Shown here: positions 16,402 to 46,157 of the stretch, piece by piece
Layout: every line of letters begins with the position of its first letter
Position numbering within the stretch: the first letter of the stretch is position 1
IMG/VR virus record: IMGVR_UViG_2851949629_000006
Coordinates: 1 to 49,715 of that record
Origin: a virus
Lineage: Duplodnaviria > Heunggongvirae > Uroviricota > Caudoviricetes
Direction: 5' to 3' (one strand)
Length of the DNA: 49,715 bases
Notes under the pieces: model-generated
What the model was told of the DNA's origin: nothing
What the model saw: the letters and a program-made list of their open reading frames with translations, nothing else
Database searches by the model: none
Position numbers and translations under genes: made by a program

Positions 16402-16478
16402 TTACCTTATGGGTAATAAAATATTCTAAAATCTATTGATTTCGTGTCTTATGTGGTTTTTAATTACCTTAGGGGTAA
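16402..16478. promoter_or_regulatory. promoter region with two operator palindromes (TTACCTTATGGGTAA 16402-16416; TTACCTTAGGGGTAA 16464-16478) and a -35/-10 candidate (TTGATT 16436-16441 / TTTAAT)
   Basis: Same TTACC-N5-GGTAA operator as O_L/O_R, immediately upstream of the ATG at 16482. Confidence 0.5.
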
Positions 16479-16481
16479 ATC

Positions 16482-16829
16482 ATGAGAAAACAGATACAGG
16501 CTCTTGGTCGACTCAAAACAGGCCAGATGAACAAAACAGAATCTGCGTATTGCCAGCACCTTGAGCAGCGTAAACGTGCAGGGGAAATCGCCTGGTATCG
16601 ATTCGAGGGTATCAAGCTGCGGTTAGCTGATAACACGTTTTATACGCCCGATTTCGCTGTGATGCTCGCCACCGGAGAGATGGAACTGCACGAAGTGAAA
16701 GGGGGATTCTGGACCGACGACGCCAGGGTGAAAACCAAAGTAGCCGCAGATCAGTATCCGTTCCGAATCATCGGGGTAACGGTTAAACCAAAGAAAGCTG
16801 GTGGCGGCTGGAACATCGAAGAGTTCTGA
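16482..16829 (+). CDS. hypothetical protein with PD-(D/E)XK-like motif (VRR-NUC-like nuclease candidate)
   Basis: Motif ...YTPDFAV...ELHEVKGG... (PD...E-x-K) in a 115-aa protein. Confidence 0.4.
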   Translation: MRKQIQALGRLKTGQMNKTESAYCQHLEQRKRAGEIAWYRFEGIKLRLADNTFYTPDFAVMLATGEMELHEVKGGFWTDDARVKTKVAADQYPFRIIGVTVKPKKAGGGWNIEEF

Positions 16830-16890
16830 ATCGACGATCTTTTTAGTTATCAATGTTATCAATAAGTTATGTGGATAAGCGAGGGTAAAG

Positions 16891-17403
16891 ATGGAAAGTA
16901 ATATCAAAGGGTTAGTTGCCGCCGGGCATGAGATGGCTTCGGAACTGAAAGCAGAATGTGGTGCTGTTGATATGCGTAGTGTGGCAAAGCTGCTCAGCGA
17001 TTTGGCAACGCAACTGGAAGTGCAACTGGTGCGTGCTAATGCGCTGGCCGAAGACCAGCAGAAAGCGATTGAGTCAATTAAGCAGGCTGATGCAGCTGTT
17101 AAGTTGGCACACGAGAAGTTTTCGGCGCTGGCGGCGGAGAATGCGCGGCTGAATAAATTTATCGTACAGAGTTGCTATGTGTTTAATGGCGAGCAGGATG
17201 AAATATCTGATGCGTATATCTGCGCAACAGACGGAGGTATGCCGCAAATTCCAGCCACCGATGCTTTTCTGGCTGAAGTACGAGCGCAGGGCGTGGAGAT
17301 GGCTATGGAGCATATGCAGTCGAGCGGTTCGTTAACATTTGGAGATTGCTACATATCACTTAACGAGTTCGCCGCCCAGCTTCGTAAAGGAGGCAACCAG
17401 TGA
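16891..17403 (+). CDS. hypothetical coiled-coil protein
   Basis: 170-aa ORF, RBS GAGGG 5 nt upstream of ATG. Confidence 0.45.
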   Translation: MESNIKGLVAAGHEMASELKAECGAVDMRSVAKLLSDLATQLEVQLVRANALAEDQQKAIESIKQADAAVKLAHEKFSALAAENARLNKFIVQSCYVFNGEQDEISDAYICATDGGMPQIPATDAFLAEVRAQGVEMAMEHMQSSGSLTFGDCYISLNEFAAQLRKGGNQ

Positions 17404-18098
17404 GCGAGATTGACTATCAGGTACTGCGTGAAAAGGCAGAAAAAGCAACGTGGGGAGACTGGGACTCATATAAACCACACCGTGGCGCACGTGGTTATGA
17501 GGTCCGACTAAGTAGTCAGGCCATTGCGCAACACGTTCTGAAAAACAACGCTGAATTTATTGCTGCCTTTAATCCAAAGGTTGCTTTGGCACTACTGGAT
17601 GAACGGGAAGCCAAAGACAAAGCATGGTCCGCACAGGACAACCATATCAACCAGCAGGCTGACCGAATTGAATCGCTGGAGAAGAAGAATGGCGAGCTGG
17701 GCAGAGCGCTGGAAGCCGCAGAGAAGCGCATTGCAGAACTGGAAAAAAGCGAAGAGCAACTCATTAATGAGCGTGACCATGCTGAGTCTGCTTTAGATGA
17801 TATGTACTTGGCAGCAACCGGTAACAGGCCGGAGTGGAGTAACTGGTTCGGCTTTTCAGATGCCGTCGATGCCGTGGTTGACAGAATTGCTGATTTAGAA
17901 GCTAAACAGCCATCGCCAGTAGTACTGGAAGGACTGGTTAAAGCAGTGCGCTTCTATGAACAGGTAAAGTGTGAGAATCCGCCAGCTGAAACCGGAGCAT
18001 GGAAGGACGCTGTTGACTGGGTGCTTAAAGAGGCTTGTCAGGCTGTAAATATTGGCACCAAAGGAGACGCAGGAGAGCAAAGCGATGAAAAACCGTAA
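17400..18098 (+). CDS. Ead/Ea22-like protein
   Basis: N-terminus MSEIDYQVLREKAEKATWGDW resembles the conserved start of Ead/Ea22-like proteins of lambdoid prophages. Confidence 0.55.
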   Translation: MSEIDYQVLREKAEKATWGDWDSYKPHRGARGYEVRLSSQAIAQHVLKNNAEFIAAFNPKVALALLDEREAKDKAWSAQDNHINQQADRIESLEKKNGELGRALEAAEKRIAELEKSEEQLINERDHAESALDDMYLAATGNRPEWSNWFGFSDAVDAVVDRIADLEAKQPSPVVLEGLVKAVRFYEQVKCENPPAETGAWKDAVDWVLKEACQAVNIGTKGDAGEQSDEKP

Positions 18099-18283
18099 GG
18101 CAAAGATGCTGATAGCAAAGCCCGGGCAGCGTATCCGTATCTCAAATCGGCTTGTTATTTACTATAGATATCTGGGTTTTAGGGGGTGTTCCTCTATTCG
18201 TTTTTACGGTGTCTGGCGGAGCAGAAGCGCGGCGCAAAACCGCTGGAAAAACCACAGTTATCTGCGCACTAAAGGAGAGTGAG

Positions 18284-18799
18284 ATGGCGTTAACACACCG
18301 CGAACTCTGTCAGATTGCGTACAAGTTCCTTAAGCGCAACGGGTTCAAGGTTTGCTTTCATGACCGCTTTATAGCTGTAACCAGTACCGGAGAACAGCCA
18401 GATGCTATGGGATTCAGAAATTCAGCATCATGCTTGATAGAGGCGAAGTGTTCTCGTGCTGACTTGTTGGCAGATAGAAAAAAGCGTTTCCGTAAAAATC
18501 CGTCTCTTGGAATGGGCGACTGGCGATTCTTTATTAGTGAGCCGGGAATTATTTCAGTTGAGGATTTACCGCCTGGCTGGGGATTGCTTCACGTTGTTAA
18601 CGGAAGAGTACGGAAAGTACATGGGTGGCCCAAGGGTAATTGCTGTTGGGGTAATCCTGACGATAAGCCATTTACTGGGAATAAGCAGGTTGAATGCGAT
18701 TACATGTTATCTGCATTAAGGCGCATGGAGTTGAGAGGGCACCTTAATGAAATATATGACGGCGTAATTGTTAATAAGAAAGAAGGAAACGCGGCATGA
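18284..18799 (+). CDS. hypothetical protein with PD-(D/E)XK-like motif
   Basis: ATG at 18284 with strong RBS AAAGGAGAG; motif GEQPDAMGF...CLIEAKC. ORF-track upstream extension from 18152 rejected. Confidence 0.45.
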   Translation: MALTHRELCQIAYKFLKRNGFKVCFHDRFIAVTSTGEQPDAMGFRNSASCLIEAKCSRADLLADRKKRFRKNPSLGMGDWRFFISEPGIISVEDLPPGWGLLHVVNGRVRKVHGWPKGNCCWGNPDDKPFTGNKQVECDYMLSALRRMELRGHLNEIYDGVIVNKKEGNAA

Positions 18800-28062: not shown

Positions 28063-28500
28063 ATGATCACCGACAAACTGTTGATGTTCTCCGAAGCTCA
28101 GGCGGTTACGAATACCGCGGCTTCTACTGACGTAATCGATCTCGGTCCAATTGACGGAAAACGTCGTGATATCGGCGTGGGTTACCCGCTTGAGTTTTGG
28201 GCGCTGGTTAACACAGCCGCCGCAGCAAGCGGTGATGCAACTGTAAACATCCAGTTGCAGACGAGTGAGAATAACACCTCATGGACCACTATTTATGATA
28301 GTGGCGCACTGGCAAAGACCATCCTGACAGCAGGTAAGCGAGTTGTTTCTGCAAAGGTGCCTGCCGGTGTTCAGCGATATCTGCGTGTTAACTACTCCGT
28401 CGCAACTGGCCCACTAACGGCTGGCGAATTCACTGCTGGTATCAGTCTTGATGTTGATGCCAATACGCCGTATCCGATCCGCTCAAAAGTAACTGGTTAA
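28063..28500 (+). CDS. hypothetical head protein (possible decoration protein)
   Basis: 145-aa ORF directly downstream of the capsid gene. Confidence 0.4.
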   Translation: MITDKLLMFSEAQAVTNTAASTDVIDLGPIDGKRRDIGVGYPLEFWALVNTAAAASGDATVNIQLQTSENNTSWTTIYDSGALAKTILTAGKRVVSAKVPAGVQRYLRVNYSVATGPLTAGEFTAGISLDVDANTPYPIRSKVTG

Positions 28501-28510
28501 GGTGATATCG

Positions 28511-28846: not shown

Positions 28847-28862
28847 GCCTCGCGGATCAGAC

Positions 28863-33305: not shown

Positions 33306-35818
33306 TGCCAGTCGTACCAACAGTATCCGGACGTCAGGTTGAGAGCCGTGGAGTTCAGTCAGCAGGCTTGCAGACGTTTTCTCAGCCAGGTATTGGTGAT
33401 GCTTTTGTTCGGGCAGGGACAGAAGCAATTGATGTTTTTGGTCAGGCAAAACAGCGTGCCAATATCGCTCTGGCTCAGGAGGCATCTCTTAACCTCAGTC
33501 AGATAAGCAGCGATCTGCTGAATAACCCTGAAACAGGTTTGCTTAACCTGAAAGGGAAAAATGCTATTGGAAAAGGTCAGGAGTATACGCAGCAGTTTGA
33601 TACTCAGGTCGAACAACTGGCTATGTCGCTGCCGGATGAACAGGCTCGTAATGCTTTCATGCAGCAGGCGCAGCAGCAGCGCATTCAGTTCACTACGCAG
33701 GCAGGGCGGCACGAGATAGGGCAAATAAATGCCTACGAAGAAGGCCAGTTTCAGGCTACGCTGCTGAACAATGGTAAAAATGCCGCAGCATTGTATGGCG
33801 ACAACGCCGCATACGTATTGGCTAATAAGCAAACTTTCCAGCAAATTGAGGATTACGGCATTGCACATGGTTGGAGTGACGAGCAAATCCAGGCCAAGAA
33901 AATCGAGTTTAAAGAAGCAACAGCAAAAGCAACTGCTCAAAATGCTATTGGAGCAAACTATCTTCAGGTAAGACAGCAAAACGGCGAGTTAAGCGATACT
34001 GCTGCTGGATCTCGCCGTGCTGTAGCAGATAGTGGCTCTTCCGATCGTACCCGCGGTATACGCAACAATAACCCCGGCAATCTTGAATACAGCAAAACTA
34101 ATCCGTGGGTTGGGCAGACTGGTGATGATGGTCGCTTTGCTAAATTCGAAACACCTGAATACGGTATTCGTGCATTAGGGCGGAACCTGATGTCGTATCA
34201 GCGGCAGGGTATTGATACCGTCAGCGGGATAATTAATCGCTGGGCACCGCCCACTGATAAAAATGACACAATGTCGTATATCAAAGCAGTGTGCGAACAA
34301 CTTGGCGTTTCTGCTGATGAGCCTCTCGATGCATCTAATCCGGATACCCTGAAGGCGCTTTGTGCAGCCATTATCCATCATGAAAACGGTAGCCAGCCAT
34401 ACAGTGATCAGCAGTTAACTGATGGTGTTAGTGCTGCGCTGGGGCTTTCTCAGCTACCGACAAAAAATAAACGTTATACCGGTGTAGCCTGGTTCGATGC
34501 TTTAAGTGAATCAGATCAGGCCAGCGTGTTGCGACAGACTGATGCACTAGCCAGACAACAGCAGGCTGAATATAAAACGATGCTCGACAGCCGGGTTCGC
34601 GATGCGACGGCTGCGTATATGCGTGGCGTTGAATTTCCTAACCCACCTGGTGAGGATGATTTTATTGCAGTTTATGGAGTCAGAGAAGGAAACCTGCGAT
34701 ATACCGAGTTTAAGAATACGCAGATCGCCGGACAGTATATAGGCTCTTTCCGCAACATGCCGACAAGCAGCATTACAGCATATGTTGAGCAATTACGCCC
34801 GGATACTGGTGATACAGGGGAGGGGTATGCGGCACGCGCAGCTCTTTATGACAACGTTGTTTCGGCTGCAAATCAGGTGATAAAGCAGCGGCAGTCGGAT
34901 CCTGTTCAGTTCTCTCTTGCCTCCGGACAGGCAAAGCCTATCGACATGAGCAATAAGGATAACTTTGGACAGAGCGTTGCCTTGCGTGCCGCTCAGGTCA
35001 GTGACCTTGCTAAGTCATATGGCACTCCACTGACGTTCTTTTCCAAAGACGAGGCCAATCAGATCGGTGTTTTCTTTCGTGATGCTCCAGTTTCCCAACA
35101 GGCAGCATATCTCGATACCATCAGGCAGAGCACTGGTGGTGGGCAGGTGTATATGTCAGCACTACAGCAGATCAGTGCCAACGCTCCATCTGCTGCCGTT
35201 GCCGGGATACTGATGGATAAGCCTGGTGGTATTTTGGCAGAAAAAAACTGGTTTAATCCGGATGTTTCCGTGTCTCCTGAAACCGCTGCGCAGACAATTC
35301 TTGCTGGCGCGGCGGCTCGTAAAGGTACTGATGATGCGAAAGGTATTCCGATGCCTAAAGATGCTGATCTTCGCCTTGAGTTTTCTGACATGGTGAAGGA
35401 TGCATTTGCTGGTGATGCTCAGGGGGCATCAATGGCATACGAGATCGCAAAGGACTATTACGCTGGTGTGATGGCGAAAAAAGGCGTGGTTTCAGGCGAA
35501 ATTGACAATGATATCTGGAAACAGGCTGTTAACGTAGCTACAGGTGGCGTGCATGACTATAACGGAATGGGGAATGTTCTTTTGCCGTGGGGAATGTCTG
35601 CAGAGCAATTCGATAAGCAGGTTAATCAGGCTTGGAATGAACAAGTTGTTGGCACAGGGATAAAAACACCGCCTGGTCAGTATGGTTTGCAAAGTTACGG
35701 CGATAGTCAGTACCTGGTGAAACTTGGTACTGGTTATCTGCTAAAAGATGATGGTTCTCCCGTTGTTCTTGATCTGACACAGAAGCGTCAGAGATTCTCC
35801 GGAGATATTCCGCAATGA
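33305..35818 (+). CDS. internal virion/ejection protein (large)
   Basis: 838 aa from the ATG at 33305 (TAATG overlap); one of three consecutive large proteins between tail-tube and fibre genes, the usual position of ejectosome proteins. Confidence 0.45.
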   Translation: MPVVPTVSGRQVESRGVQSAGLQTFSQPGIGDAFVRAGTEAIDVFGQAKQRANIALAQEASLNLSQISSDLLNNPETGLLNLKGKNAIGKGQEYTQQFDTQVEQLAMSLPDEQARNAFMQQAQQQRIQFTTQAGRHEIGQINAYEEGQFQATLLNNGKNAAALYGDNAAYVLANKQTFQQIEDYGIAHGWSDEQIQAKKIEFKEATAKATAQNAIGANYLQVRQQNGELSDTAAGSRRAVADSGSSDRTRGIRNNNPGNLEYSKTNPWVGQTGDDGRFAKFETPEYGIRALGRNLMSYQRQGIDTVSGIINRWAPPTDKNDTMSYIKAVCEQLGVSADEPLDASNPDTLKALCAAIIHHENGSQPYSDQQLTDGVSAALGLSQLPTKNKRYTGVAWFDALSESDQASVLRQTDALARQQQAEYKTMLDSRVRDATAAYMRGVEFPNPPGEDDFIAVYGVREGNLRYTEFKNTQIAGQYIGSFRNMPTSSITAYVEQLRPDTGDTGEGYAARAALYDNVVSAANQVIKQRQSDPVQFSLASGQAKPIDMSNKDNFGQSVALRAAQVSDLAKSYGTPLTFFSKDEANQIGVFFRDAPVSQQAAYLDTIRQSTGGGQVYMSALQQISANAPSAAVAGILMDKPGGILAEKNWFNPDVSVSPETAAQTILAGAAARKGTDDAKGIPMPKDADLRLEFSDMVKDAFAGDAQGASMAYEIAKDYYAGVMAKKGVVSGEIDNDIWKQAVNVATGGVHDYNGMGNVLLPWGMSAEQFDKQVNQAWNEQVVGTGIKTPPGQYGLQSYGDSQYLVKLGTGYLLKDDGSPVVLDLTQKRQRFSGDIPQ

Positions 35819-37662
35819 GTTACTTTGGCCTTAATCCAGTAAACCAGAATCAGCAGCTTGACGAAGCAGCATCAAATCCAGCTGGCTTTAACAGCGATGT
35901 TGGTTTTTTCGACAATGCTGTAGGAGCGGCATTGTCTGGTTTGTACTCCGGGCTGGTGGCAAAGCCAGATCAGTTGCTCTGGGCAGGGATGGATAAAATC
36001 GTATCCCCGATTGCTCAGTTTGTTAACGAAAACACCTCGCTCAATGACACTTCAGTTTCATACATTGCCGAGCAGAGAAAACTAGCAGAGCAGCAGGTTA
36101 AGCGGCTGACGCCTGATGCCGCGACAACCGGAACCGCCGGGCAGGTTCTTTATGGGTTGTTCGATATGGGCGGGCAGGCTGTTATCGGTACAACGCTCGG
36201 TGGTCCGGTCGGAGGTGCTGCGGCGGTAACTTCGCTACAGGGTTTTTCTGAGTTTGAACGGCTGACAGCACAGGGTGTTGATTTCAGGACGGCGCAGGAA
36301 GCGGGATTAGTGCAGGGTATTACTGCTGGTGCCGGAACACTGATCCCTATGAGCCTCGGGTTACGTGCTGGTGGTGCGCTGGCGGAAGGTGTGGCGGCTC
36401 AGCTTGCGCGGACGGGTGAAAGTTCAGTGCGACGCGCCGCAGCAACAGCAGTACGTGCAACGCCAGATATTGCCTATGCCGCAGGTACAAATATTGCGTT
36501 CGGTATGGCACAGCGTGGGCTTACTGCAAAAACGCTTCGTGATGGTGGCTATAGCGAAATGGCTAACCAGTATGATGTGTTGGATCGACAGGCAATTGCT
36601 ATTGATGCTGTTCTTGGGGTGGCGTTTGGTGGTGTCGGCAGATTTATTAACTCTCACGGTGAGGCTACAAGCACCCCCAATTTTTCACCAGTTGATGTCG
36701 ATGCTGCACTGGCGGCGAATGCCGCTCATCATGCTGAAATTGATATTTCTCCCGGCGTGCCGATCAACGTGCTTTCGCGCAATTCTCACATTCAGGCTCT
36801 GCGAAAAGCTATGTCTGATGTTAGCCAGGGGAGACCTGTAGACGTTGCCAGCATTGTTGAGTCTGCATCTTTCAGTGAAATTCCTGGGCGCAAGAATCTG
36901 CTGTCTCAGGCAGTTAATGAGGCTCTGTCATCTGTAGATGATGGAGCAACAGCGCGCGCTATCGAAAATCGGTTGCTTGAAGAACGGGCTGCGCAGCTTT
37001 TGCCGCGAGGCGATAGACAGGTTTACCAGTCTGAAATCGCTAATAGCCAACGAATTATTGAAAATCTCACTGAACAGCGCGCACAAATTCTTGCAGAAGA
37101 GCCAACCGGTAGCGGTAAAGCTTTGTCTCGTGCTCGATCAGATAAACAGGCCAGACTTCGGGATATTGACCAACGAATCCGGCAGGCACAAGAACGCCTG
37201 GAATTTTCCCGTAACGCGTTGGCACCGCACGAGCCTGGAGGTCAGTTTTTTGAAGCTCGAGCAGAACTGGCACGGCGACAGCAGGCAGAAAGTGAACTTA
37301 ATGCTCAGGCTGTTTCATTCTATAAAACAGCAGAGGTCAGGACGCCAGACGAAGTAGCTCCTTTTGAGCCCGGTAAGATATTGCAACAGGCAGAACAAAA
37401 AATGATGGCAGATCCGGCAGGAGATATTGATCTGCGTATAGCTGAAGACTCGCTGCTTGAATCACCTGACATGATAATCACCGTGCTGGATGATGATGGT
37501 AATCCACAATCGCGCAGAGCGCGTGAAGTACTGGATGATGATGGTAATCCACAATCGCGCAGAGCGCGTGAAGTACTGGATGAAGCGAACAGGGAAAGTG
37601 AGCAGGCAATACAGGATTCCAGCCTGTTTGATGTCGCTGTGGCGTGTTTCTTGAGAGGTTAA
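35815..37662 (+). CDS. internal virion/ejection protein; contains a 45-bp in-frame tandem duplication near the C-terminus
   Basis: 615 aa; perfect tandem repeat at 37486-37530 and 37531-37575 encoding LDDDGNPQSRRAREV twice. Confidence 0.45.
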   Translation: MSYFGLNPVNQNQQLDEAASNPAGFNSDVGFFDNAVGAALSGLYSGLVAKPDQLLWAGMDKIVSPIAQFVNENTSLNDTSVSYIAEQRKLAEQQVKRLTPDAATTGTAGQVLYGLFDMGGQAVIGTTLGGPVGGAAAVTSLQGFSEFERLTAQGVDFRTAQEAGLVQGITAGAGTLIPMSLGLRAGGALAEGVAAQLARTGESSVRRAAATAVRATPDIAYAAGTNIAFGMAQRGLTAKTLRDGGYSEMANQYDVLDRQAIAIDAVLGVAFGGVGRFINSHGEATSTPNFSPVDVDAALAANAAHHAEIDISPGVPINVLSRNSHIQALRKAMSDVSQGRPVDVASIVESASFSEIPGRKNLLSQAVNEALSSVDDGATARAIENRLLEERAAQLLPRGDRQVYQSEIANSQRIIENLTEQRAQILAEEPTGSGKALSRARSDKQARLRDIDQRIRQAQERLEFSRNALAPHEPGGQFFEARAELARRQQAESELNAQAVSFYKTAEVRTPDEVAPFEPGKILQQAEQKMMADPAGDIDLRIAEDSLLESPDMIITVLDDDGNPQSRRAREVLDDDGNPQSRRAREVLDEANRESEQAIQDSSLFDVAVACFLRG

Positions 37663-37667
37663 ATTAA

Positions 37668-40142
37668 ATGAGACAGGAATGTATACAAGCGGTCCAGCAG
37701 GCGGCGCAGCGCACGTTAACGGCGCGAGAAATACAGAACATTGAAGACCGCGTTTATCGAAATATGCGCTCCATTGCTCGTGATGACCCGATGTCGTGGA
37801 GACAACTTTCCGAATCAGAGCGGCTATATCGAGCAGCACAATTGGCATCTGAAGAATTACAGCGAGAAGCGGCATTAAAGAAACGTCGTGTGGCTCTCAC
37901 TATAGCCGCGCGTCAGAGATTGGATAAATTTATCAATAGCTATCAAGGGGCTGATGGGAAACTTGGAGCTCTTAACCGTACTATAGCTTTTAATGCAGAC
38001 GGTAAATCTAATTTCCTCTCTGTTGAATCCAGAACAAAAGCCACCCGTGATTATGCATTGAGTCAATTGCAGGAGGCATTCGAAGCAGTTGATCCTCGCT
38101 TTTTTGGTCTGTTTGAAGATGAAGCGGGCGTACGTGACCTGGTATATGAAATGCGGGGGCAAAATACTGGCAATGCTAAAGCAAGAAAAGGTGCTAAGGC
38201 GTGGAGAGAAGTTACAGAGCTGCTGCGCCGCCGGTTTAATGATGCTGGTGGGGACATTGGCTATCTCGAAAACTGGGGGATCCCTCAACATCATTCTATG
38301 GAAAAGGTTGGGGCAGTATCAAAGGATAAGTGGGTTAGCGATGTTATAGGTAAGCTGGATCGCAAATATTATATCCGAGCTGATGGACAACTGATGAACG
38401 ATGCCGAGTTGTCTTCATTTCTTGGAGAGGCTTATAACACGATCGCTACTGGTGGGCTGAATAAGCTTACTGATACCGGAATGCGAATTTCCGGCGCACG
38501 TGCTAACCGTGGTAATGCATCACGACAGATACATTTCAAAGATGCAGATTCCTATCTGCAATATCAGCAACTTTATGGCGATCGCTCTCTATGGGAAATC
38601 ATGGTCGGTCACCTGGAAGGTATCAGTAAAGATATTGCACTGGTGGAAACATATGGCCCAAACCCCGATCATGTTTTCCGCTCTCTTCTTGATCAGGTGA
38701 AGGCAGAAACGGCAACAGCTAACCCGAGTAAAACCGGTAAAGTCGAGCGGCTGGCGAACAACACAGAGAATCTGTACAACTTTATTTCCGGAAAGACACA
38801 GCCTGTAGCGAATCCGCACATCGCGCGATGGTCTGACAATATCCGCAACTGGCTGGTTGCCAGCAGACTCGGATCCGCGTTGCTGTCATCGTTCTCTGAT
38901 CTTGGAACCATGTATCTGTCTGCGAAGGTTACCAACCTTCCAATGAGCCAGTTATTCCGTAACCAGCTTGAAGCTATGGACCCAACGAACCGCACTGAGC
39001 TTGCGCGGGCACGCCGCGCTGGTCTGGCGATGGAATCTCTACTTGGCAGCGTTAACCGCTGGGCGATGGATAATATGGGGCCGTCTGTGTCTCGTTGGGC
39101 GGCAACGGCGGTAATGCGTGCCAGTGGGCTTACAGCATGGTCAGATGCGCACAAGCGCGCCTATGGCGTAACCATGATGGGAAGCCTGGGAGAAGTAGTG
39201 TCACGGACACCAGACCTTCGTAGCCTTGATGACTCTGATTTTCGTATCCTGAAAAGCAAAGGGATTACTGACACAGACTGGAGCGTATGGAAGTTGGCGC
39301 AACAGGAGGACTGGGGGAACGGTAATAATACGATGCTGACGCCGGAAAGCATTATGCGTATCCCTGATTCAGCAGTTAAACATCTTGGTGAGCCTGAACG
39401 CGTGAAATTTGAGGCAATGCGTAAACTGCTCGGTGCCGTAACTGAAGAAGTTGATATGGCTGTTATTACACCGGGAGCACGTGAGCAACTGATAACCGGT
39501 TCTGGTATTCAGCGTGGAACATGGAAAGGTGAATTAACGAGAAGTGTTTTCCTGTTTAAATCGTTCCCTATCTCGGTTGTTATGCGTCACTGGTCACGCG
39601 CTATGGGTATGCCGTCTGCTGGTGGGCGTGCGGCATATATTGCGACGTTTATTGCCAGTACGACCATTCTTGGCGCTTTGTCGCAGCAACTTAACGACCT
39701 TGCGTCTGGTCGTAATCCTCGAGAGATGACAGGAGAAGATGCCGCAAAATTCTGGCTTGGTGCTCTACTGAAAGGTGGTGGTCTTGGCCTGTACGGTGAC
39801 TTTTTATTGTCAGATCACACTAGGTACGGAAGCGGCACGCTGGCGTCGATGCTTGGCCCGGTAGCTGGTCTGGTTGATGACGTAGTGAAGATTGCTCAGG
39901 GCATACCGTTAAATGCTGTGGAAGGGAAGAGTGAGCAGACTGGTGGTGATCTGGTGAAGCTGGGGAAAGGTTTGATGCCTGGTGCGAATCTCTGGTACTT
40001 GAAGGCGGCTCTCGATCACATGATCTTTAACCAAATGCAGGAGTATTTTTCACCAGGCTATTTGCGTAAAATGGAGCAACGTTCGAAGAAAGAGTTTAAC
40101 CAGACATACTGGTGGCGACCTCAGGATGTCACTCCGCAATAA
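37668..40142 (+). CDS. internal virion/ejection protein (large)
   Basis: 824-aa ORF, last gene of the structural block before the accessory island. Confidence 0.45.
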   Translation: MRQECIQAVQQAAQRTLTAREIQNIEDRVYRNMRSIARDDPMSWRQLSESERLYRAAQLASEELQREAALKKRRVALTIAARQRLDKFINSYQGADGKLGALNRTIAFNADGKSNFLSVESRTKATRDYALSQLQEAFEAVDPRFFGLFEDEAGVRDLVYEMRGQNTGNAKARKGAKAWREVTELLRRRFNDAGGDIGYLENWGIPQHHSMEKVGAVSKDKWVSDVIGKLDRKYYIRADGQLMNDAELSSFLGEAYNTIATGGLNKLTDTGMRISGARANRGNASRQIHFKDADSYLQYQQLYGDRSLWEIMVGHLEGISKDIALVETYGPNPDHVFRSLLDQVKAETATANPSKTGKVERLANNTENLYNFISGKTQPVANPHIARWSDNIRNWLVASRLGSALLSSFSDLGTMYLSAKVTNLPMSQLFRNQLEAMDPTNRTELARARRAGLAMESLLGSVNRWAMDNMGPSVSRWAATAVMRASGLTAWSDAHKRAYGVTMMGSLGEVVSRTPDLRSLDDSDFRILKSKGITDTDWSVWKLAQQEDWGNGNNTMLTPESIMRIPDSAVKHLGEPERVKFEAMRKLLGAVTEEVDMAVITPGAREQLITGSGIQRGTWKGELTRSVFLFKSFPISVVMRHWSRAMGMPSAGGRAAYIATFIASTTILGALSQQLNDLASGRNPREMTGEDAAKFWLGALLKGGGLGLYGDFLLSDHTRYGSGTLASMLGPVAGLVDDVVKIAQGIPLNAVEGKSEQTGGDLVKLGKGLMPGANLWYLKAALDHMIFNQMQEYFSPGYLRKMEQRSKKEFNQTYWWRPQDVTPQ

Positions 40143-40151
40143 GGAAGTGTT

Positions 40152-40325
40152 GTGTTTTTAATTATTTTGAGTGTGATAATTTCTGGTGGATTGTTATTTA
40201 TTGACCGCTACAAATATTTTCTTAACCCTCAGACTCAAGCTATTTGCTGGTTCATCTTTGTTGTGCAGGGAGTAGTTCTTGTTGCAAGCCTTATTGAGGG
40301 GAGGCCTCTTATTTTTACTGGGTAA
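40152..40325 (+). CDS. small membrane protein (57 aa)
   Basis: GTG start with AAGGAAG RBS 4 nt upstream; two hydrophobic segments; not in the ORF track (below its length cutoff); AT-rich. Confidence 0.4.
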   Translation: MFLIILSVIISGGLLFIDRYKYFLNPQTQAICWFIFVVQGVVLVASLIEGRPLIFTG

Positions 40326-40337
40326 ATAGGTGACTAC

Positions 40338-40634
40338 ATGCAAGCTATAGGATTCATTGTTTATATCGTCGTTGGTCTTTTTCAGTTGGCAGCAATTATG
40401 GCTGGGCTTGAATCATGGTGGGGATTGCACTGGATAATTGCAGCCCCCATTGCTTTCATCGTGAGCTATATTCCATTTGTTGGAGCGATTGTTGGTATGG
40501 TTGGCGCTGTGGATGTATGGCGGTGGGAGTGGTGGCAGGCTGGCCTTCTCTTCTTTGGTGGGATCATCTTTGCTATTGTCTGCGGTGGAATGTCATCATT
40601 TTTCGAACGGCTATCATTCAGAAAAGGAACGTGA
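40338..40634 (+). CDS. integral membrane protein (98 aa, about 3 TM segments)
   Basis: ATG with AGGTGA RBS; hydrophobic throughout; followed by an intrinsic terminator. Confidence 0.5.
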   Translation: MQAIGFIVYIVVGLFQLAAIMAGLESWWGLHWIIAAPIAFIVSYIPFVGAIVGMVGAVDVWRWEWWQAGLLFFGGIIFAIVCGGMSSFFERLSFRKGT

Positions 40635-40642
40635 CATGTCAC

Positions 40643-40667
40643 AGGCCGCTTTCGCGGCCTTGTTTTT
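40643..40667 (+). terminator. rho-independent terminator (AGGCCGCTTTCGCGGCCT + TGTTTTT)
   Basis: 7-bp GC stem, 4-nt loop and T-run; the 18-bp core GGCCGCTTTCGCGGCCTT recurs at 43564-43581. Confidence 0.65.
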
Positions 40668-40728
40668 AACGAATGCCACCGCCACCCGGGCGGGAATCCG
40701 CAGACACAAAAAAGCCCGCGTCGCGGGC

Positions 40729-41268
40729 TTACCAAAACTTGTACCACGGGGATTTATCCTTCAATGGACAATCCTTCCATCGTGTGGCCAACCATTCATA
40801 TTCTTTAAAATATGTGTTTATGTTTTCTTTTTCTCTAATAGCTTGTATAAGAGGTAGCGCAATCTGATAGTTATTTACAACGGAGCTGTAAAATACTTCC
40901 TTAATCATGGTCTCATCATAAGTTTTCCGCTTCACGCTCACAGCCATGCGTTCGTAGAAACCTAGACAGTAAATTATTTCTCTCTTCTCTATCTTTTCTT
41001 CATCCGTAAGATCAGCCTGCCCATTGCTTGGATACATATAAGAGCGGAATGATTTGTTCGATTCGTGAATGCGGCGCATAGTAGATAGGCCTTTCTTATA
41101 ATCTACATCAAACCTGCTTTCACCAAGGAATACTGAAGTGTGTACTTTTCTCGCTGTATTTACATTATAAATAATAGTAGCGATAGCTATGAACAAGCCA
41201 AGCGAAACCGCGACTGCACTTACGATTTGAGCCACAGCCATGGCAAATTGCATTTCTTCACTTAACAC
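40729..41268 (-). CDS. N-terminally membrane-anchored protein (179 aa), accessory gene
   Basis: GTG start with GGAGA RBS; one N-terminal TM helix (FAMAVAQIVSAVAVSLGLFIAIATIIY) then a soluble domain; AT-rich codon usage. Confidence 0.5.
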   Translation of the reverse strand: MLSEEMQFAMAVAQIVSAVAVSLGLFIAIATIIYNVNTARKVHTSVFLGESRFDVDYKKGLSTMRRIHESNKSFRSYMYPSNGQADLTDEEKIEKREIIYCLGFYERMAVSVKRKTYDETMIKEVFYSSVVNNYQIALPLIQAIREKENINTYFKEYEWLATRWKDCPLKDKSPWYKFW

Positions 41269-41289
41269 AAACTGTCTCCAGACATGAAA

Positions 41290-41309
41290 ACGGGGCCTAA
41301 TGGCCCCGT
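41290..41309 (-). terminator. intrinsic terminator downstream of the antirepressor gene
   Basis: Hairpin ACGGGGCC-TAAT-GGCCCCGT; on the minus strand it is followed by TTTTCAT. Confidence 0.5.
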
Positions 41310-41485
41310 CATAAAACTATCCGAATGTTAAACGCCTTCGTACTCGTCAAATTTTCTCATGTGGGCTCCTCCTGTATCGGTGCCTAATCGCTATGGATCA
41401 CCCGTAAGGTAATAGTACTCTATTCACCCCCGGTCTGCAATCTGTACAGAATTATTTAAAGGCACATCCCTGTGCCGCCGTTCTG

Positions 41486-42142
41486 TCAGAAGAACCCTGC
41501 CTTGTCGTTGATGTACTCCGCGTGAGTCTGGATATCACGCAGGCATTTGCTCACACCGACGATGTAGCAGAACATGGTGGTCAGCTCCGCCGCCGCGCCC
41601 GATACGTCGTGCCCGTCGTCCTGTAACTGGTTCAGCAGATTCATCAGCAGTGAGTTCTCCGTCAGGCCGAGAACACCAGACGGAGAATGAATCAGACTGC
41701 GGTAGCCAGGCTTCAGTGGGGCGCTGTATTCTTTTTTGTCTTCCAGCTTGATCGCCTCCATAATGGCGGGCATGAAGCCTGACAAGACCTTCTCCACTTT
41801 TGTTTCTTGTTGTCTTAAACGTTTCTCGCATTCAATGAAGTAGCGTCGCACCTGGCGACCTTTTTCGTTACGCTCGACCATTGCCAGCTCTTTGGCTGTA
41901 TCGAGGGTGAGGTGGTACTCTTTGCGGTTGTGGCCGCCTCTACCAGATGTTTGCTTTCCCAAATTGGAAAGCAAAATATAGTCTTGATTTTCAATGAATT
42001 CGTATTCTGAAATTCGATTTGTAATCCATGCTGCAAACACCTTTTTAACACCTAAAAAAGCGTGCAGATCGCGGGCATTACAAAGTAGGGCTGTTTCGTT
42101 AGATATAGTGCCGTTGAATACGGGGATGAGTTGAGCGTTCAT
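41486..42142 (-). CDS. antirepressor (AntA/Ant-like)
   Basis: 218 aa; N-terminal ...[22 protein letters not shown]... and ...[35 protein letters not shown]... resemble the AntA/AntB N-terminal domain. GGAG RBS. Confidence 0.6.
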
Positions 42143-42296
42143 GATGGTGTCTCCACTTAGCGAATTACATCACCACCGCAACGCCAATTACTGGTGGTGA
42201 ACTGAACAAGGTTGGCGTACCGGCCTAAGTGGTACCGGCGTCCTTTCGGACCCCTGCCCAGCCCACCATAATTCGGATATAGCTGTGCTTAACGCA

Positions 42297-42320
42297 TAAA
42301 AAAACCACGTCTGGCGTGGT
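42297..42320 (-). terminator. intrinsic terminator/attenuator within the ant leader (or 3' end of a small RNA)
   Basis: Minus strand reads ACCACG-CCAGA-CGTGGT followed by seven T (plus strand A-run 42298-42304); located about 110 nt downstream of the predicted ant promoter and about 150 nt upstream of the ant start codon. Confidence 0.5.
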
Positions 42321-42410
42321 ATGCGCCACTTAGTAACTCGGGACGCCAATCCCGGCACTGGATTTTGCCAGTGCCCGATTACTATGGCACAAGAGGAGTG
42401 CGATGTAAAT

Positions 42411-42533
42411 TTACCGTAAAGGTAATAATAAATGCATAACTCACGTTATTTCAACCCTATGTGGTTTGATTGATCCCATTTCAGAAAATACCTGCCTATT
42501 TTTTTGCCAGTATGCGTATACTTTCGATAGAAT
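42411..42533. promoter_or_regulatory. divergent promoter region: operator TTACCGTAAAGGTAA (42411-42425), motif TATGTGGTT (42458-42466), and a plus-strand sigma70-like promoter TTGCCA-17bp-TAGAAT (42505-42533)
   Basis: Operator identical in form to O_L/O_R; on the minus strand a TTGAAA -35 with the -10 overlapping the operator is positioned to drive the ant leader. Confidence 0.5.
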
Positions 42534-42562
42534 GTTAACCCTAGAGGTAGTTGGGGGTGCCC

Positions 42563-43066
42563 ATGAACACGAAGAGAGTTGCAGCGATGAGGCATAGACG
42601 CTTGACCTTGAAAAAGTCTGAAAAAGAAAAAGAGAAAAAGATGGTGATTGAAGCAGCCGCCATAGCAACTGCCAATGCCATCAGGATTCATGATGAAGAA
42701 GTTGAGCAAAAATACCCGGTTATGTTCATCACTGAATACGACCAGCATGAGGCATTGTTAAAAATCCGGGGCACATCTTTTGAAGGAATCTTGGCAGATA
42801 AGCTTCATCGTGCCTCATGTCAAACGAATATAATGCGACCTTACGAGTCAAGGCTAATCGAAACTGGACGCTCCAAGGATAAGCAGCAATTAGTTGAGAT
42901 GATAAAGCGGTATTATAAGTCATCTTTTAAGCCTACAGCGTCACATGAGGTTGTAATGCGAGAAGTACCAAAGATGTCTGTTGAAAAATCGCATGCAATC
43001 TCGCGCAGGATGTTTGCACGCACTGCTGAAGATATGGCTCAGGAGCTCTACGACGATGCCGAATAA
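42563..43066 (+). CDS. hypothetical protein, upstream partner of the YafO-like gene (candidate antitoxin/immunity)
   Basis: 167 aa from the ATG at 42563 (ORF track starts at TTG 42551); basic N-terminus; stop overlaps the downstream start (ATGCCGAATAA). Confidence 0.45.
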   Translation: MNTKRVAAMRHRRLTLKKSEKEKEKKMVIEAAAIATANAIRIHDEEVEQKYPVMFITEYDQHEALLKIRGTSFEGILADKLHRASCQTNIMRPYESRLIETGRSKDKQQLVEMIKRYYKSSFKPTASHEVVMREVPKMSVEKSHAISRRMFARTAEDMAQELYDDAE

Positions 43067-43562
43067 ATTCCAGGGGTTGGTTCACCCTGGAATTTTTGGG
43101 AAGGACCCTGAGCTAATACCTATCAAAAACGCGTTCATAGATCACTGGCGCTACGGTCATCATAAGGATTTCGGAAAGGACACTCTGTTTCGGGATCCAC
43201 CGAAAGAGATGCTGGAATATCACATACGCCACGTTCACGTAAACATCGGAAACTATACTGACAAGTTTGGTGAGAGCGGTACGGAACAATGCTGGAAAAA
43301 CTGGGCATCCGGGAAGAAAGACAAGACCACCAACAAGCATAAAAAAATACCAACCAGTGATGTATATGTGATTTATCTTGTAACGTCTGAGCGACATGCG
43401 TTTCTTCTGGATTACTGGGATGAGCCAGCACACAAAAAAGTAGAAATTGACGAACAGAAACAAAAACTTCTTGTCGAGTGTGACAGAATTTTGCGGCGGA
43501 AAAATTTAGAATCCATGCCGCGCGATGCAAGTTTGTGGGACCCGGAATTTTACGACTGTTAA
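43056..43562 (+). CDS. YafO-family toxin-like protein (candidate type II toxin)
   Basis: 168 aa; segments HHKDFGKDTLFRDP and YHIRHVHVNIGN resemble the YafO segments DTFGRDALYDD and ERVAHIHLANE as I recall them. Confidence 0.45.
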   Translation: MPNKFQGLVHPGIFGKDPELIPIKNAFIDHWRYGHHKDFGKDTLFRDPPKEMLEYHIRHVHVNIGNYTDKFGESGTEQCWKNWASGKKDKTTNKHKKIPTSDVYVIYLVTSERHAFLLDYWDEPAHKKVEIDEQKQKLLVECDRILRRKNLESMPRDASLWDPEFYDC

Positions 43563-43563
43563 T

Positions 43564-43581
43564 GGCCGCTTTCGCGGCCTT
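43564..43581. terminator. hairpin GGCCGCTTTCGCGGCCTT between convergent genes (second copy of the 40644 hairpin)
   Basis: Exact 18-bp repeat of 40644-40661; 6-bp GC stem with TTTC loop; T-rich flank. Confidence 0.5.
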
Positions 43582-43586
43582 TAAAT

Positions 43587-43862
43587 TTACCGGGTTTGTT
43601 TTCGTAATTGTTCGGCACAATAGTCGAGATGTGTTTGCAGATCCTGCATAGACATCTGTGAGCTGGTGACGTAGTTAATCAGTGCAGTCAGTTCGGCAAG
43701 TGGGCCATCGACATTAAATCCATCCTTATCGAGATCCCGGAGTAATTTCATCAAGTGCGATCCCTCCACCAGTGACCTGACGCCTCCCGGCGTGTGAATC
43801 CTTTCGGTAAATCCGTCTTCCAGTGGATAGTGATACCGCTGCATCTTATCTTCTCCATGCAA
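43587..43862 (-). CDS. small protein paralogous to the antirepressor C-terminal domain
   Basis: 91 aa; ...TPGGVRSLVEGSHLMKLLRDLDKDGFNVDGPLAELTALINYV...MQDLQTHLDY... parallels ...[42 protein letters not shown]...[10 protein letters not shown]... of the 41486-42142 product. Confidence 0.5.
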   Translation of the reverse strand: MHGEDKMQRYHYPLEDGFTERIHTPGGVRSLVEGSHLMKLLRDLDKDGFNVDGPLAELTALINYVTSSQMSMQDLQTHLDYCAEQLRKQTR

Positions 43863-43920
43863 TAACTGTATAAATATACAGTACCAAATAATTTATTGTC
43901 TATCCAGCACGTTTTGCAAA

Positions 43921-43975
43921 TCACCTGAAAGGTAATATCTGTTCGTATTCACAGTCTGTCTATCCATATGTGGTT
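43921..43975. promoter_or_regulatory. divergent promoter region with operator TCACCTGAAAGGTAA (43921-43935) and motif CCATATGTGGTT (43964-43975)
   Basis: Between the Ant-C-like gene (minus) and the tail fibre gene (plus). Confidence 0.5.
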
Positions 43976-44039
43976 TTTCAGGTAATAAAATAACCCAGCA
44001 TGCGGCGCAACGGGTGCTGCGACTATCTGGAGATTTAAA

Positions 44040-46061
44040 ATGACGGTCTCAACCGAAGTTGGCCACAACGAATACACTGGTAACGGCGTTACGACTACAT
44101 TCCCTTATACATTCAGGGTTTTCGATAAATCTGATCTGGTAGTGCAGATAGTTGACCTTGAAGAGAATATCACTGTCCTGGTTCTTGATACCGATTACTC
44201 AGTAACCGGGGTGGGGGGATACAATGGTGGCAATGTAATGCTGAGGACAGCGTTAACTTCTGGTTATCGTATTTTTGTATCGCGTGAGCTGCCTGTTACG
44301 CAGGAAACAGATCTGCGCAATCAGGGAAAGTTTCTGGCAGAGGTGCATGAGGATGCATTTGATAAGCTGACGATGCTTATTCAGCAAGTATTTTATAACC
44401 TGAGCAAGGTAATAAAAGTTCCTGAATCAGGGAACTGGTTGGTTCCAACAATTAGGTTAAGAAAGAATAAAATCTTTGCATGGGACGAAGAGGGAAATCC
44501 AATTGCTGTATCACCTGAATCAGGTAGTGCCTCTGATGTAATGATTGAGCTGGCAAAATCATCCGGGGCTGGGTTGATTGGCACAACGTCGGGGGGGACC
44601 GTTCAATCAGTACTGGATGAGTGTCATGCAAGGCTCATCACATGTGAGCGCAACAGCCGGGTGGAAAATTTTTACACGCTGGCGGAAACCTGCACAGCGG
44701 AGCTTTTATCGCTGAATGCCCCGGAGGCATATGACAAATCCATTACGCTGACGGTCAATGAGGAACTGACCACGGACTATACCGGTCCGGTCACAGGTCA
44801 TTGCAGCATCGGTAATCCGCATAACTACACCATTGCGATGTGTACGAGCACAACTCTGGAATATCAGGTTTCCTCGGTGGTACTGGAGAGTGACGGCACG
44901 TTCAGTTTCGCCAGAAGCTGGACTGGGGCTAAGTCTTTTAAACTGTATCGTACATCAAATAACGGTCTGGCAACCGTCTGGGAAGATCCGCTGTGTATCC
45001 GCTCTTACCGGATGCCATCGGATGCCGGGGATGAAACGGTAAGGGTGATGAAAGACCGTACATACACTTATGATCAGGCGGTGTCAGCTATTGCACTGAT
45101 GGCGCAGGGGAATAGTCAGGTGGAACAGTTTGTCCGTGGTTTGTGCGCGATTGTGGGTAGTGGTGGTAGCGAGGGGAGTGTGCCTTTTTTCGTGAACCGC
45201 ATGTCAGCGCAGACATCGTCACAGTATTACCGGACGGGAAACGCAGCGTGGGTGGCGTATGCGCTGGCGTATTATCTGCAGAAATATCCGGATGGTGAAA
45301 TGGCCGTTGTTGCCCGGGATAAACTAACGCAGTGCGCAGAGTGGATTGAAACGTTCAGAGTAGCAGACAGTGGTGATATTCGTTATGGGTTGTATACATC
45401 CGGTAGCGGACGGTATCTGGATGGCGTCTTTTACCCTGATTTTAAAGCAGACTGGTGCACATCGGAGCACCAGTTTGATTTGTGGTTTCTGTTTGACCTG
45501 ATGGGGCGGGTAGGCTTCACCGGCTACGCTGAAAAGGCGAAAGCCCTGGCGGATGCCATTATGGAAAAGCTGTGGGTGGAGGATGAAGGGCGATTTTATG
45601 CCGGGATGCGAACCACCGGGCCTGACAAGGCCTCACCACTGGACTGTGCAAGCTGGGGCGGGCTGTTTGTGTACAATATCGATATGGAAAAAGCCCGGCG
45701 GTGTTTTACTTACCTGGACAGATTCTGGTACGCCACGCACGATGCGACAGGGTACATGCCTTATCATCCGGAATATGGCTACCCGAATAAACAGCGGGGA
45801 GTCTGGGTGGAGGGCAGTGCAGGCGTGGCATTGCTGGCCCGTAGACTGGGAGATGATGCCACCGCGATGGATATTCTGGCGAGGCTGGCACCACTGCGCA
45901 CACGTTATGGTTACATTGATTCAAGCGATTATCCAGATAATGATGACATGCCGCCGTGGCCTTCTTCCTGCAACACGGCCTGGATGATACTGGCATGCGA
46001 TCCGCAGGGGTTCTGGAACGTTGGGGTAAGTAGTCTGTCTGGACGTTATTATAGGTATTGA
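44040..46061 (+). CDS. tail fibre/tailspike with T7 gp17-like N-terminal adaptor domain and a predicted enzymatic C-terminal domain
   Basis: N-terminal ...VTTTFPYTFRVFDKSDLVVQIVD...ITVLVLDTDYSVTG parallels the T7 gp17 N-terminus (...DFNIPFEYLARKFVVVTLIG...KVLTINTDYRF). C-terminal ~400 aa is helix-rich with Trp/Tyr/Asp/Glu-rich segments, suggesting an alpha/alpha-barrel glycosidase rather than a beta-helix. Confidence 0.55.
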   Translation: MTVSTEVGHNEYTGNGVTTTFPYTFRVFDKSDLVVQIVDLEENITVLVLDTDYSVTGVGGYNGGNVMLRTALTSGYRIFVSRELPVTQETDLRNQGKFLAEVHEDAFDKLTMLIQQVFYNLSKVIKVPESGNWLVPTIRLRKNKIFAWDEEGNPIAVSPESGSASDVMIELAKSSGAGLIGTTSGGTVQSVLDECHARLITCERNSRVENFYTLAETCTAELLSLNAPEAYDKSITLTVNEELTTDYTGPVTGHCSIGNPHNYTIAMCTSTTLEYQVSSVVLESDGTFSFARSWTGAKSFKLYRTSNNGLATVWEDPLCIRSYRMPSDAGDETVRVMKDRTYTYDQAVSAIALMAQGNSQVEQFVRGLCAIVGSGGSEGSVPFFVNRMSAQTSSQYYRTGNAAWVAYALAYYLQKYPDGEMAVVARDKLTQCAEWIETFRVADSGDIRYGLYTSGSGRYLDGVFYPDFKADWCTSEHQFDLWFLFDLMGRVGFTGYAEKAKALADAIMEKLWVEDEGRFYAGMRTTGPDKASPLDCASWGGLFVYNIDMEKARRCFTYLDRFWYATHDATGYMPYHPEYGYPNKQRGVWVEGSAGVALLARRLGDDATAMDILARLAPLRTRYGYIDSSDYPDNDDMPPWPSSCNTAWMILACDPQGFWNVGVSSLSGRYYRY

Positions 46062-46157
46062 TTTCTGATAAAGTAATAATTTAACCACATATGGTTTATT
46101 GTGTATGATGAACTCATCAATAAGTGGGTTCTTCATGCACATTAAACGGTGGTTTTT

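Follow-up and report, generated by a model that had tools for sequence, protein, structure and literature searches.

A conserved 14-bp palindromic site at most lytic promoters of an epsilon15-like prophage

A repeated dyad beside the operators of a Uetakevirus prophage

We analysed a 49,715-nucleotide stretch of viral DNA (IMG/VR record IMGVR_UViG_2851949629_000006, positions 1 to 49,715; this whole stretch is called the window below) in which a short sequence, CCATATGTGGTT, recurs at the promoters of a prophage. Sequence comparison showed that the prophage, which occupies ~9.5–48 kb of the window, is ~96% identical to the Escherichia phages TL-2011b and phiV10; by this measure it is an epsilon15/phiV10-like Uetakevirus of E. 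coli. Epsilon15-like phages (phiV10, SPC32H, TL-2011b) are frequent prophages of E. coli O157 and Salmonella, and they serve as reporter and typing phages. The order of features is integrase, a cluster of IS66 elements, a leftward early operon, rep (− strand), a cro-like gene, a terminator, the replication genes, a nin-like operon ending in a gene for the phrog_536 'regulator', the terminase, portal and structural genes, and finally antirepressor genes, the tailspike gene and the lysis cassette.

The prophage repressor, Rep (13462–14046, − strand), is homologous to Rep of phage SPC32H (PDB 5D50, E = 4e-42). Its canonical 15-bp operator, TTACC-N5-GGTAA, was matched 13 times in the window with at most one mismatch, against 0.75 expected. 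One operator lies at 13328–13342, and others start at 13390, 14102, 14150, 16402, 16464, 20795, 20813 (a hybrid), 24023, 41398, 42411 and 43921. The GenBank record of epsilon15 labels their counterparts as 'repressor' binding sites.

We observed that TATGTGGTT occurs exactly five times in the window, at 16450, 24081, 42458 and 43967 on the + strand and at 46083 on the − strand (sites 1 to 5 in that order). The expected count was 0.43, and five occurrences were reached in none of 100 dinucleotide-preserving shuffles. The original prediction, made from the letters of the window, had placed a motif at four promoters and in the holin region; all five positions were right to within a few bases, and the enrichment bears the motif out. 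It had also described the core as nearly palindromic, which we could refine by aligning the sites with those of TL-2011b, epsilon15, Tyrion, phiV10, BUCT711 and SPN9TCW. In this alignment with six Uetakevirus genomes, the unit is a 14-bp dyad, AACCA-N4-TGGTT (equivalently AWCC-N6-GGTT), of which TATGTGGTT is the right part. TGGTT, its right half, hardly varies, the left half being the weaker one, and 40 distinct instances from the Uetakevirus set fit A-W-Y-C-N6-G-G-T-T. A stricter form of the dyad pattern matched the window seven times, compared with 0.57 in shuffles; five of these matches are motif sites and two are intragenic (9761 and 32478). The same pattern gave two to six matches in each of the other Uetakevirus genomes scanned and zero or one in control phages. 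The dyad is not returned by the 15-bp operator pattern at one mismatch or fewer, being 14 bp long and having T, not A, after GGT.

With the dyad defined in this way, we found seven intergenic copies in the window, two more than the original prediction listed. All promoter hexamers given here were inferred from the sequence. A weak copy, ATGCGTATCTGGTT (13348–13361), fills the 17 nt between the hexamers of PL, the early promoter that points leftward (− strand; −35 TTGACA, complement of 13365–13370; −10 AATCAT, complement of 13342–13347) and begins 5 nt past the operator at 13328–13342; the corresponding copy in Tyrion is ATCCATATATGGTT. Past the cro terminator (14453–14472) is a previously unlisted copy, AACCAAATCTGGTT (14507–14520), which begins 5 nt past a weak operator, GCACCTCAAAGGTAA (14487–14501). 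The last two bases of this copy start a putative −35, TTGATC (14519–14524), with a −10, CAAAAT, at 14542–14547 and a 66-amino-acid open reading frame (ORF) downstream at 14582. The copy TGTCTTATGTGGTT (16445–16458) occupies the spacer of the promoter of the nin-like, post-replication operon (TTGATT at 16436–16441, 18 nt, TTAATT at 16460–16465), and it has operators on both sides, at 16402–16416 and 16464–16478.

The remaining copies belong to the late part of the prophage. Upstream of the gp3/portal gene, AATCATATGTGGTT (24076–24089) is followed after N5 by GGTAATAAT and a putative −10, AATAAT (24098–24103), without a −35; an operator lies upstream at 24023–24037, at a centre-to-centre distance of 52.5 bp. 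The copy AACCCTATGTGGTT (42453–42466) is 41.5 bp from the operator at 42411–42425, in a divergent region between the isrK–C4–antA operon (− strand) and a + strand moron. The copy ATCCATATGTGGTT (43962–43975) precedes the tailspike gene; after it come N5, GGTAA and a putative −10, TAAAAT (43986–43991), and an operator lies 40.5 bp upstream (43921–43935). Upstream of the lysis cassette, AACCACATATGGTT (46083–46096) is placed at about −33 to −20 by the pair TTAACC-17-TATGAT (46081–46109), and a scan with the operator pattern at one mismatch or fewer found no canonical operator nearby in this window.

Two details of the original prediction changed with these positions. It had put the motif downstream of an operator palindrome by 33–45 bp; the operator is real, and the gap from operator end to core is ~28–41 nt. 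It had also called the holin copy inverted. On the + strand, 46083–46096 reads AACCACATATGGTT, and the phiV10 and Tyrion orthologues are the perfect palindrome AACCATATATGGTT in the same −10 register, so the orientation of this copy has no meaning and is an artefact of one base.

Alignment bore out the expected conservation in related prophages. The dyad is kept at orthologous promoters in epsilon15, SPN9TCW, Tyrion, BUCT711, phiV10 and TL-2011b. A survey of the genus by large-terminase scan, with one genome per species and covering at least ten enterobacterial genera, also found it in prophages of Erwinia, Scandinavium, Klebsiella, Pseudocitrobacter, Buttiauxella, Rahnella, Citrobacter, Superficieibacter, Pantoea and Pseudescherichia. 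Three elements before the portal operon (the operator, the dyad and a GGTAAT(A/T)AT block) were kept across genera, and the sequence between them has diverged. In epsilon15 and SPN9TCW the copy after cro has the opposite orientation. A further 80 IMG/VR loci, gathered via phrog_536, were too alike to add diversity. We conclude that the recurrence of CCATATGTGGTT reflects a genuine palindromic site of 14 bases, conserved and present at most lytic promoters, of a type that its sequence marks as protein-binding. The feature is absent from the GenBank records of epsilon15, phiV10 and Tyrion, and in the accessible literature its strings matched only unrelated primers, with no mention of the motif found.

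Helical phasing and position at promoters

We found that the dyads are phased with the Rep operators. Operator-to-dyad centre distances fall at 19.5–21.5, 40.5–43.5 and 52.5 bp, or about two, four and five helical turns, and a Rayleigh test on the nine distinct centre distances with a period of 10.5 gave R = 0.77 (p = 0.002; mean phase −0.5 bp). The portal promoter of the Rahnella prophage has lost 11 bp between operator and dyad (start-to-TGGTT distance of 51 versus 62 nt), a loss that preserves the helical phase of the two sites. PL and the nin-like promoter are mirror images of each other (operator, 19.5 bp, dyad, 42.5 bp, operator), with the two operators 62 bp apart. At several promoters a Rep half-site is exactly 5 nt from a dyad half. 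PL, the post-cro region and site 3 of phiV10 and Tyrion have the junction GGTAA-N5-AACCA; it reads TGGTT-N5-TTACC at the nin-like promoter and TGGTT-N5-GGTAA at the portal and tailspike promoters. Because both site types lie on the same face of the DNA, ~2, 4 or 5 turns apart, a single Rep tetramer could contact both. We also observed that the symmetry of the dyad is highest where support from operators is weak or missing (lysis, post-cro) and lowest between two strong flanking operators (PL, nin), a pattern of compensation that we count in favour of binding by Rep.

The position of the dyad relative to the core promoter varied. PL and the nin-like promoter have it in their spacer; at the portal, tailspike and lysis promoters it covers about −36 to −20; after cro it overlaps the −35; and PR, with its three operators, lacks it. 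Measured from TGGTT, the −10 is 1 nt away at the nin-like promoter, 7 nt at the lysis promoter, 7–10 nt among portal orthologues and 10 nt at the tailspike promoter, and GGTAAT comes 4, 5 or 7 nt after TGGTT among portal orthologues. Such varied placement relative to the −10 and −35 is what operators commonly show and activator sites seldom do, and the phasing with the Rep operator is better conserved than the phasing with the −10.

These positions bear on the main competing explanation, in which the dyad is the site of a separate trans-acting factor, from the phage or the host, that would replace the −35 and activate the portal, tailspike and lysis promoters while dampening PL and the nin-like promoter. 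Activator-dependent late promoters without a −35 are well known from P2 (Ogr), Mu (C) and P1 (Lpa, with a dyad near −22), and T4 has the MotA box at −30. The portal, tailspike and lysis promoters resemble them in having only a −10-like hexamer (AATAAT; TAAAAT/TAGAAT; TATGAT/TATAAT), no conserved −35 and a conserved element in the −35/spacer region. The lysis promoter of the window and of TL-2011b, which has the dyad without an operator, also suits this explanation, as does the terminator directly after cro, because the operons downstream of it need their own initiation. However, the distance from dyad to −10 is not fixed in these promoters as it is for activator sites (7, 8 or 10 nt, varying even among portal orthologues), and the dyad is not confined to late genes: it lies in early-promoter spacers at PL and the nin-like promoter and follows cro. 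In phiV10 and Tyrion the site-3 copy abuts the 3′ end of a small − strand gene upstream of the tailspike gene (ant in this prophage), with no + strand gene downstream. Helical phase is better kept with the Rep operator than with the −10, and we found neither a co-varying, dedicated activator gene nor, in the window, a further helix-turn-helix (HTH) domain of the type associated with such sites. Together with the failure of the candidate proteins described below, these results lead us to regard a separate factor as unlikely.

The same data make it very improbable that the dyad is an intrinsic element of promoter or DNA structure, for example an atypical signal in the −35 or spacer, a flexible CATATG kink that assists looping, or an alternative sigma factor site. 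In its favour, the dyad always lies in or beside the core promoter, and its centre is a run of pyrimidine–purine steps. Against this, it keeps no fixed register with the −10 or −35, the lysis copy is alone in coinciding with a −35, a weak one (TTAACC), and the site is a dyad that works in either orientation, the post-cro copy being flipped in epsilon15 and SPN9TCW. It is also absent from PR, and its site family recurs in the operator regions of an unrelated phage that has a matching HTH (see below). Leftward sigma-70 promoters abutting the dyad at sites 1, 3 and 4 were rejected because they are not conserved in orthologues.

An RNA-level role in 5′ leaders, for instance as an RNase III or antitermination signal, is hardly plausible. 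It would be in keeping with an 'RNaseIII' feature of the epsilon15 record (24755–24817) that starts inside the lysis copy. However, the orientation of the dyad is not conserved, most copies lie upstream of the best −10 candidates and so would not be transcribed, and Rfam covariance models gave no match over the dyad, the only matches in the window being isrK, C4 and a tRNA, all elsewhere.

We also noted several features around these promoters. The rightward operons are each preceded by a terminator and then an operator (14431–14520, 16370–16480 and 20756–20830). The start codon of the terminase small-subunit gene (ATG, 20828) follows two adjacent operators, the second of which is the hybrid TTACC-N5-GGTTA (20813–20827), and no obvious promoter was seen between the terminator at 20758–20775 and this start codon. 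The small regulatory ORFs scanned included no antiterminator of the N or Q type; with the terminator-then-operator layout, this points to a flat, repressor-centred control scheme. A tRNA-Arg(TCT) gene (23624–23700, − strand) separates the terminase and portal genes. TGTCAA at 24054–24059 (TTGACA on the − strand) is kept in all genera examined; given a spacer of 17 nt, the −10 that goes with it would be TACCTT, inside the Rep operator. This arrangement (24031–24059) suggests that a promoter under Rep control points leftward here, away from the portal promoter.

Near site 3, Rfam matches on the − strand mark isrK (42298–42374) and a C4 antisense RNA (42190–42273), directly upstream of an AntA/AntB-type antirepressor gene (41486–42142), and this stretch resembles the immI module of P1 and P7. 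A promoter-like pair, TTTACA-17-CATAGT (42409 to 42381), would start transcription at the 5′ end of isrK, and the Rep operator at 42411–42425 abuts its −35. Between site 3 and the small antirepressor gene are two + strand ORFs (42551–43562; phrog_9503 and phrog_1651, function not assigned) with their own promoter-like TTGCCA-18-TAGAAT (42504–42533) and a terminator (43564–43579). These ORFs are missing in phiV10 and Tyrion and are thus probably a moron insertion. At the other end of the prophage, the IS66-family cluster (1549–9088) lies between the integrase gene (1–1257) and the early-left genes. It contains two 537-amino-acid transposase ORFs (2144–3757 and 4101–5714) in 100% identical repeats 1957 bp apart, a diverged third transposase copy (7182–8273), and repeated TnpB_IS66 and HTH_Tnp_1 ORFs; the cluster may have arisen by nested or tandem insertion, or it may be an artefact of assembly.

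Candidate binding proteins and their relatives in other phages

The original prediction had suggested that a second DNA-binding factor (Cro-like, a late activator or a host factor) acts at these promoters. We did find a second, distinct dyad of protein-binding type at the same Rep-controlled promoters, but comparison among phages disfavoured the Cro-like and late-activator candidates. The Cro-like HTH protein (76 amino acids; 14201–14431, + strand) has a sole homologue outside the genus, in Psychrobacter phage pOW20-A, with 49% identity over the HTH and a common recognition helix, xxYIxTHL. That homologue sits amid operators of the 15-bp type (ATACC-N5-GGTAT at PL and PR), and the regulatory DNA of the pOW20-A genome contains no AWCC-N6-GGTT site. 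The phrog_536 'transcriptional regulator' (113 amino acids; 20181–20522, + strand), a ribbon-helix-helix-like protein with a Cys-rich tail, is encoded in the classical position of a late regulator. It was rejected as a late activator because its homologues occur in Pectobacterium phage ZF40 (66% identity) and the lambda-like phage Chlobot (88% identity), which lack both dyad and operator; both of these phages use Q-type antiterminators. A 68-amino-acid winged-helix (MarR/HTH_24-like) gene of the early-left operon (12651–12857, − strand) was rejected as not universal in the genus, being missing at the same position in TL-2011b, phiV10 and epsilon15. The dyad is not known to fit any of the sites of IHF, CRP, LexA, DnaA, FadR/PdhR-type regulators, MqsA, sigma-32 or sigma-54.

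Rep itself contains an N-terminal HTH (residues 1–72), a middle HTH_3 domain (residues ~85–152, nucleotides 13591–13794) and a C-terminal tetramerization domain, with Pfam matches to YdaS-like (residues 21–61) and HTH_3 (residues 106–147). The middle domain has the recognition helix Q118-V-T-I-S-R123, and the T and R of this helix 3 are kept in 19 of 19 distinct Rep orthologue sequences aligned, down to ~41% identity. In the accessible literature, Rep is reported to bind palindromic sites as a tetramer with two DNA-binding units, and its tetramerization domain is described as being of a DNA-looping type. Word-index protein searches returned mostly Rep fragments, and a search for the locus of the Rep N-terminal domain returned only near-identical E. 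coli prophages.

Outside the genus, tblastn with the middle and C-terminal parts of Rep led to cI of Pseudomonas phage PAJU2. This protein carries an S24 domain after its N-terminal HTH, and the HTH shares 40% identity with the Rep middle domain (E = 7e-10; SGVAQSTISR versus SGVAQVTISR). In the reverse search from PAJU2 cI, the Uetakevirus Reps were the best non-self matches, making the two mutually closest outside their own groups in the phage database. In the window, nothing but the Rep middle domain resembles an HTH of the PAJU2 cI type. In PAJU2, OL and OR contain six 14-bp sites of the form ATCC-N6-GGAT/GGTT: ATCCATCCGTGGAT at 38592, ATGCGCATGCGGAT at 38614, ATCCGCCTGCGGTT at 38667, ATCCGTATGCGGCT at 39446, ATTCATATACGGTT at 39470 and ATCCATGAATAGAT at 39488. 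Five sites with at most one mismatch fall within ~190 bp, against a genome background of ~0.4 per kb. The PAJU2 genome contains neither the 15-bp operator class nor a homologue of the Rep N-terminal domain.

A position weight matrix built only from the 40 Uetakevirus instances ranked ATTCATATACGGTT at 39470 first in the 46.9-kb PAJU2 genome (18.3, with the next site at 12.6), and this site sits in the 80-bp gap between cI and cro; a maximum of at least 18.3 arose in 20 of 500 shuffles, location not being counted. The same matrix ranked TTGCATATGTGGTT first (17.7 versus 8.9 for the next site; reached in 7 of 2000 shuffles) in a metagenome contig, L125, which encodes a cI-like protein with an HTH of the Rep-middle type (SGVAQSTIGR) and an S24 domain. 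This site is within the called ORF, ~50–60 nt upstream of a more likely start codon. The HTH and S24 parts of this cI-like gene (411–1148) are in one frame with a single in-frame TAG between them, which could reflect a pseudogene, a sequencing error or read-through.

Across phages, each HTH type thus occurred together with one site class. Uetakeviruses have both the Rep N-terminal-type and the middle-type HTH, and both the 15-bp operator and the 14-bp dyad. The CI protein of pOW20-A has a Rep-type N-terminal HTH (38% identity) joined to an S24 peptidase, without a middle domain, and that phage has the 15-bp class (five TACC-N5-GGTA sites at PL and PR) and no 14-bp dyad. PAJU2 shows the converse, with the middle-type HTH and the 14-bp dyad only, and ZF40 and Chlobot have none of the four.

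This distribution also bears on whether the dyad might be a low-affinity variant site for the pair of Rep N-terminal HTHs, with one extra central base pair, which would serve as a second anchor for the tetramer. The two site classes have an ACC...GGT core in common, the canonical operators tolerate changes at the position that differs (TCACC, GGTGA), and a tetramer with two DNA-binding units, as reported in the accessible literature, could hold two such sites. However, pOW20-A CI has the same type of N-terminal domain and no such sites, TGGTT, in which T flanks GG on each side, scarcely varies and is never GGTAA, and the site family matches the operators of PAJU2, a phage without a homologue of that domain. 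We consider a variant site of this kind improbable.

A composite operator and its implications

We propose that the dyad is a second class of operator, read by the middle HTH_3 domain of Rep, and that the two site classes form composite, phased operators; on the sequence comparisons above, we judge the chances of this proposal to be evenly balanced. The dyad has the 4+6+4 architecture and A-W-C-C half-site of operators of the HTH_3/434 type (PAJU2-cI-like subfamily), and an HTH of the matching kind is encoded on the same element. Binding of the middle domain to the dyad, and repression as its outcome, are what we infer from these correspondences. The N-terminal HTH of Rep would read the strong 15-bp operator and anchor the tetramer, and a dimer of the middle Xre-type HTH_3 domain would read the 14-bp dyad. 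A Rep tetramer held at the dyad over the core promoter would then occlude RNA polymerase and shut the promoter in the lysogen, and an antirepressor would release all promoters together. In its fullest form the proposal makes Rep a 'two-headed' repressor, with two unrelated HTH domains and two operator classes in phase, such that one tetramer clamps each lytic promoter and one antirepressor releases the whole genome. We put forward this fuller version tentatively, at slightly less than an even chance.

Several observations weigh against reading of the dyad by the middle domain. In the accessible literature, the middle region of SPC32H Rep is termed the 'middle dimerization domain' and DNA binding is given to the N-terminal domain. 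The Q at the first position of the recognition helix (helix 3) is kept except in the epsilon15 group, which has P in its place with the dyad unchanged. The operators of PAJU2 are themselves inferred from sequence and not mapped, and two other phages with relatives of this HTH, Ralstonia phage Dina and Burkholderia phage Bcep176, have no clear AWCC sites. The portal, tailspike and lysis promoters lack a recognizable −35, as activator-dependent promoters do. The lysis promoter of the window and of TL-2011b keeps the dyad without a nearby operator, yet it must be silent in the lysogen. Contacts by Rep across 41–52 bp would require DNA bending.

As a separate observation, the more distant relatives of the Rep middle HTH in Dina (L123), Bcep176 (L124) and a further contig, L126, adjoin 14-bp dyads of the form AGCA-N6-TGCT, and L126 has two copies 23 bp apart just upstream of the gene (943–979). 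These dyads have the same 4+6+4 form with another half-site, and the recognition helices also differ (QTTISK, QPTISR and QTSISN).

The proposed arrangement has partial precedents. Operators of Xre-type repressors of the phage 434 and P22 kind are 14-bp dyads with 4+6+4 spacing. The inferred ATCC-N6-GGAT/GGTT operators of PAJU2 overlap the dyad consensus, and the HTH of PAJU2 cI is the closest relative of the Rep middle domain outside the genus. Sites of the 434/P22 type and those of PAJU2 occur only at OL and OR, where they are read by a sole HTH, whereas in this prophage the dyads are spread over about seven promoters and paired with a second operator class. P1 C1 acts at many dispersed operators, and 186 CI and lambda CI form loops between distant sites. 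The prophage resembles these systems in having one repressor act at many scattered promoters, with cooperative or looped binding to phased sites, but in them a single DNA-binding domain reads a single site family, whereas here two site families correlate with two HTH domains.

Structurally, the Rep–Ant switch of epsilon15-like phages serves as a model of non-canonical repression. The system described here has in common with the SPC32H Rep–Ant switch (PDB 5D50/5D4Z) and the epsilon15 sites the repressor family, 15-bp operators over early and late operons, the tetramer and the antirepressor genes. It differs in that the 14-bp dyad is not annotated there and, in the literature accessible to us, the middle domain is described as a dimerization domain and not as a reader of DNA. 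Repressor operators and cooperative, phased sites are thus familiar in themselves; the dyad was previously unannotated, and two HTH domains that read two operator classes would be an unusual variant.

If the proposal is correct, it would explain how late promoters are silenced by operators 60–80 bp upstream, and why each operon has a control module of its own. It would represent a compact design for cooperative repression at multiple sites, in which the 'middle dimerization domain' of Rep is also a DNA-reading head. For the annotation of these phages, it would add seven or more regulatory sites per genome that are now unannotated.

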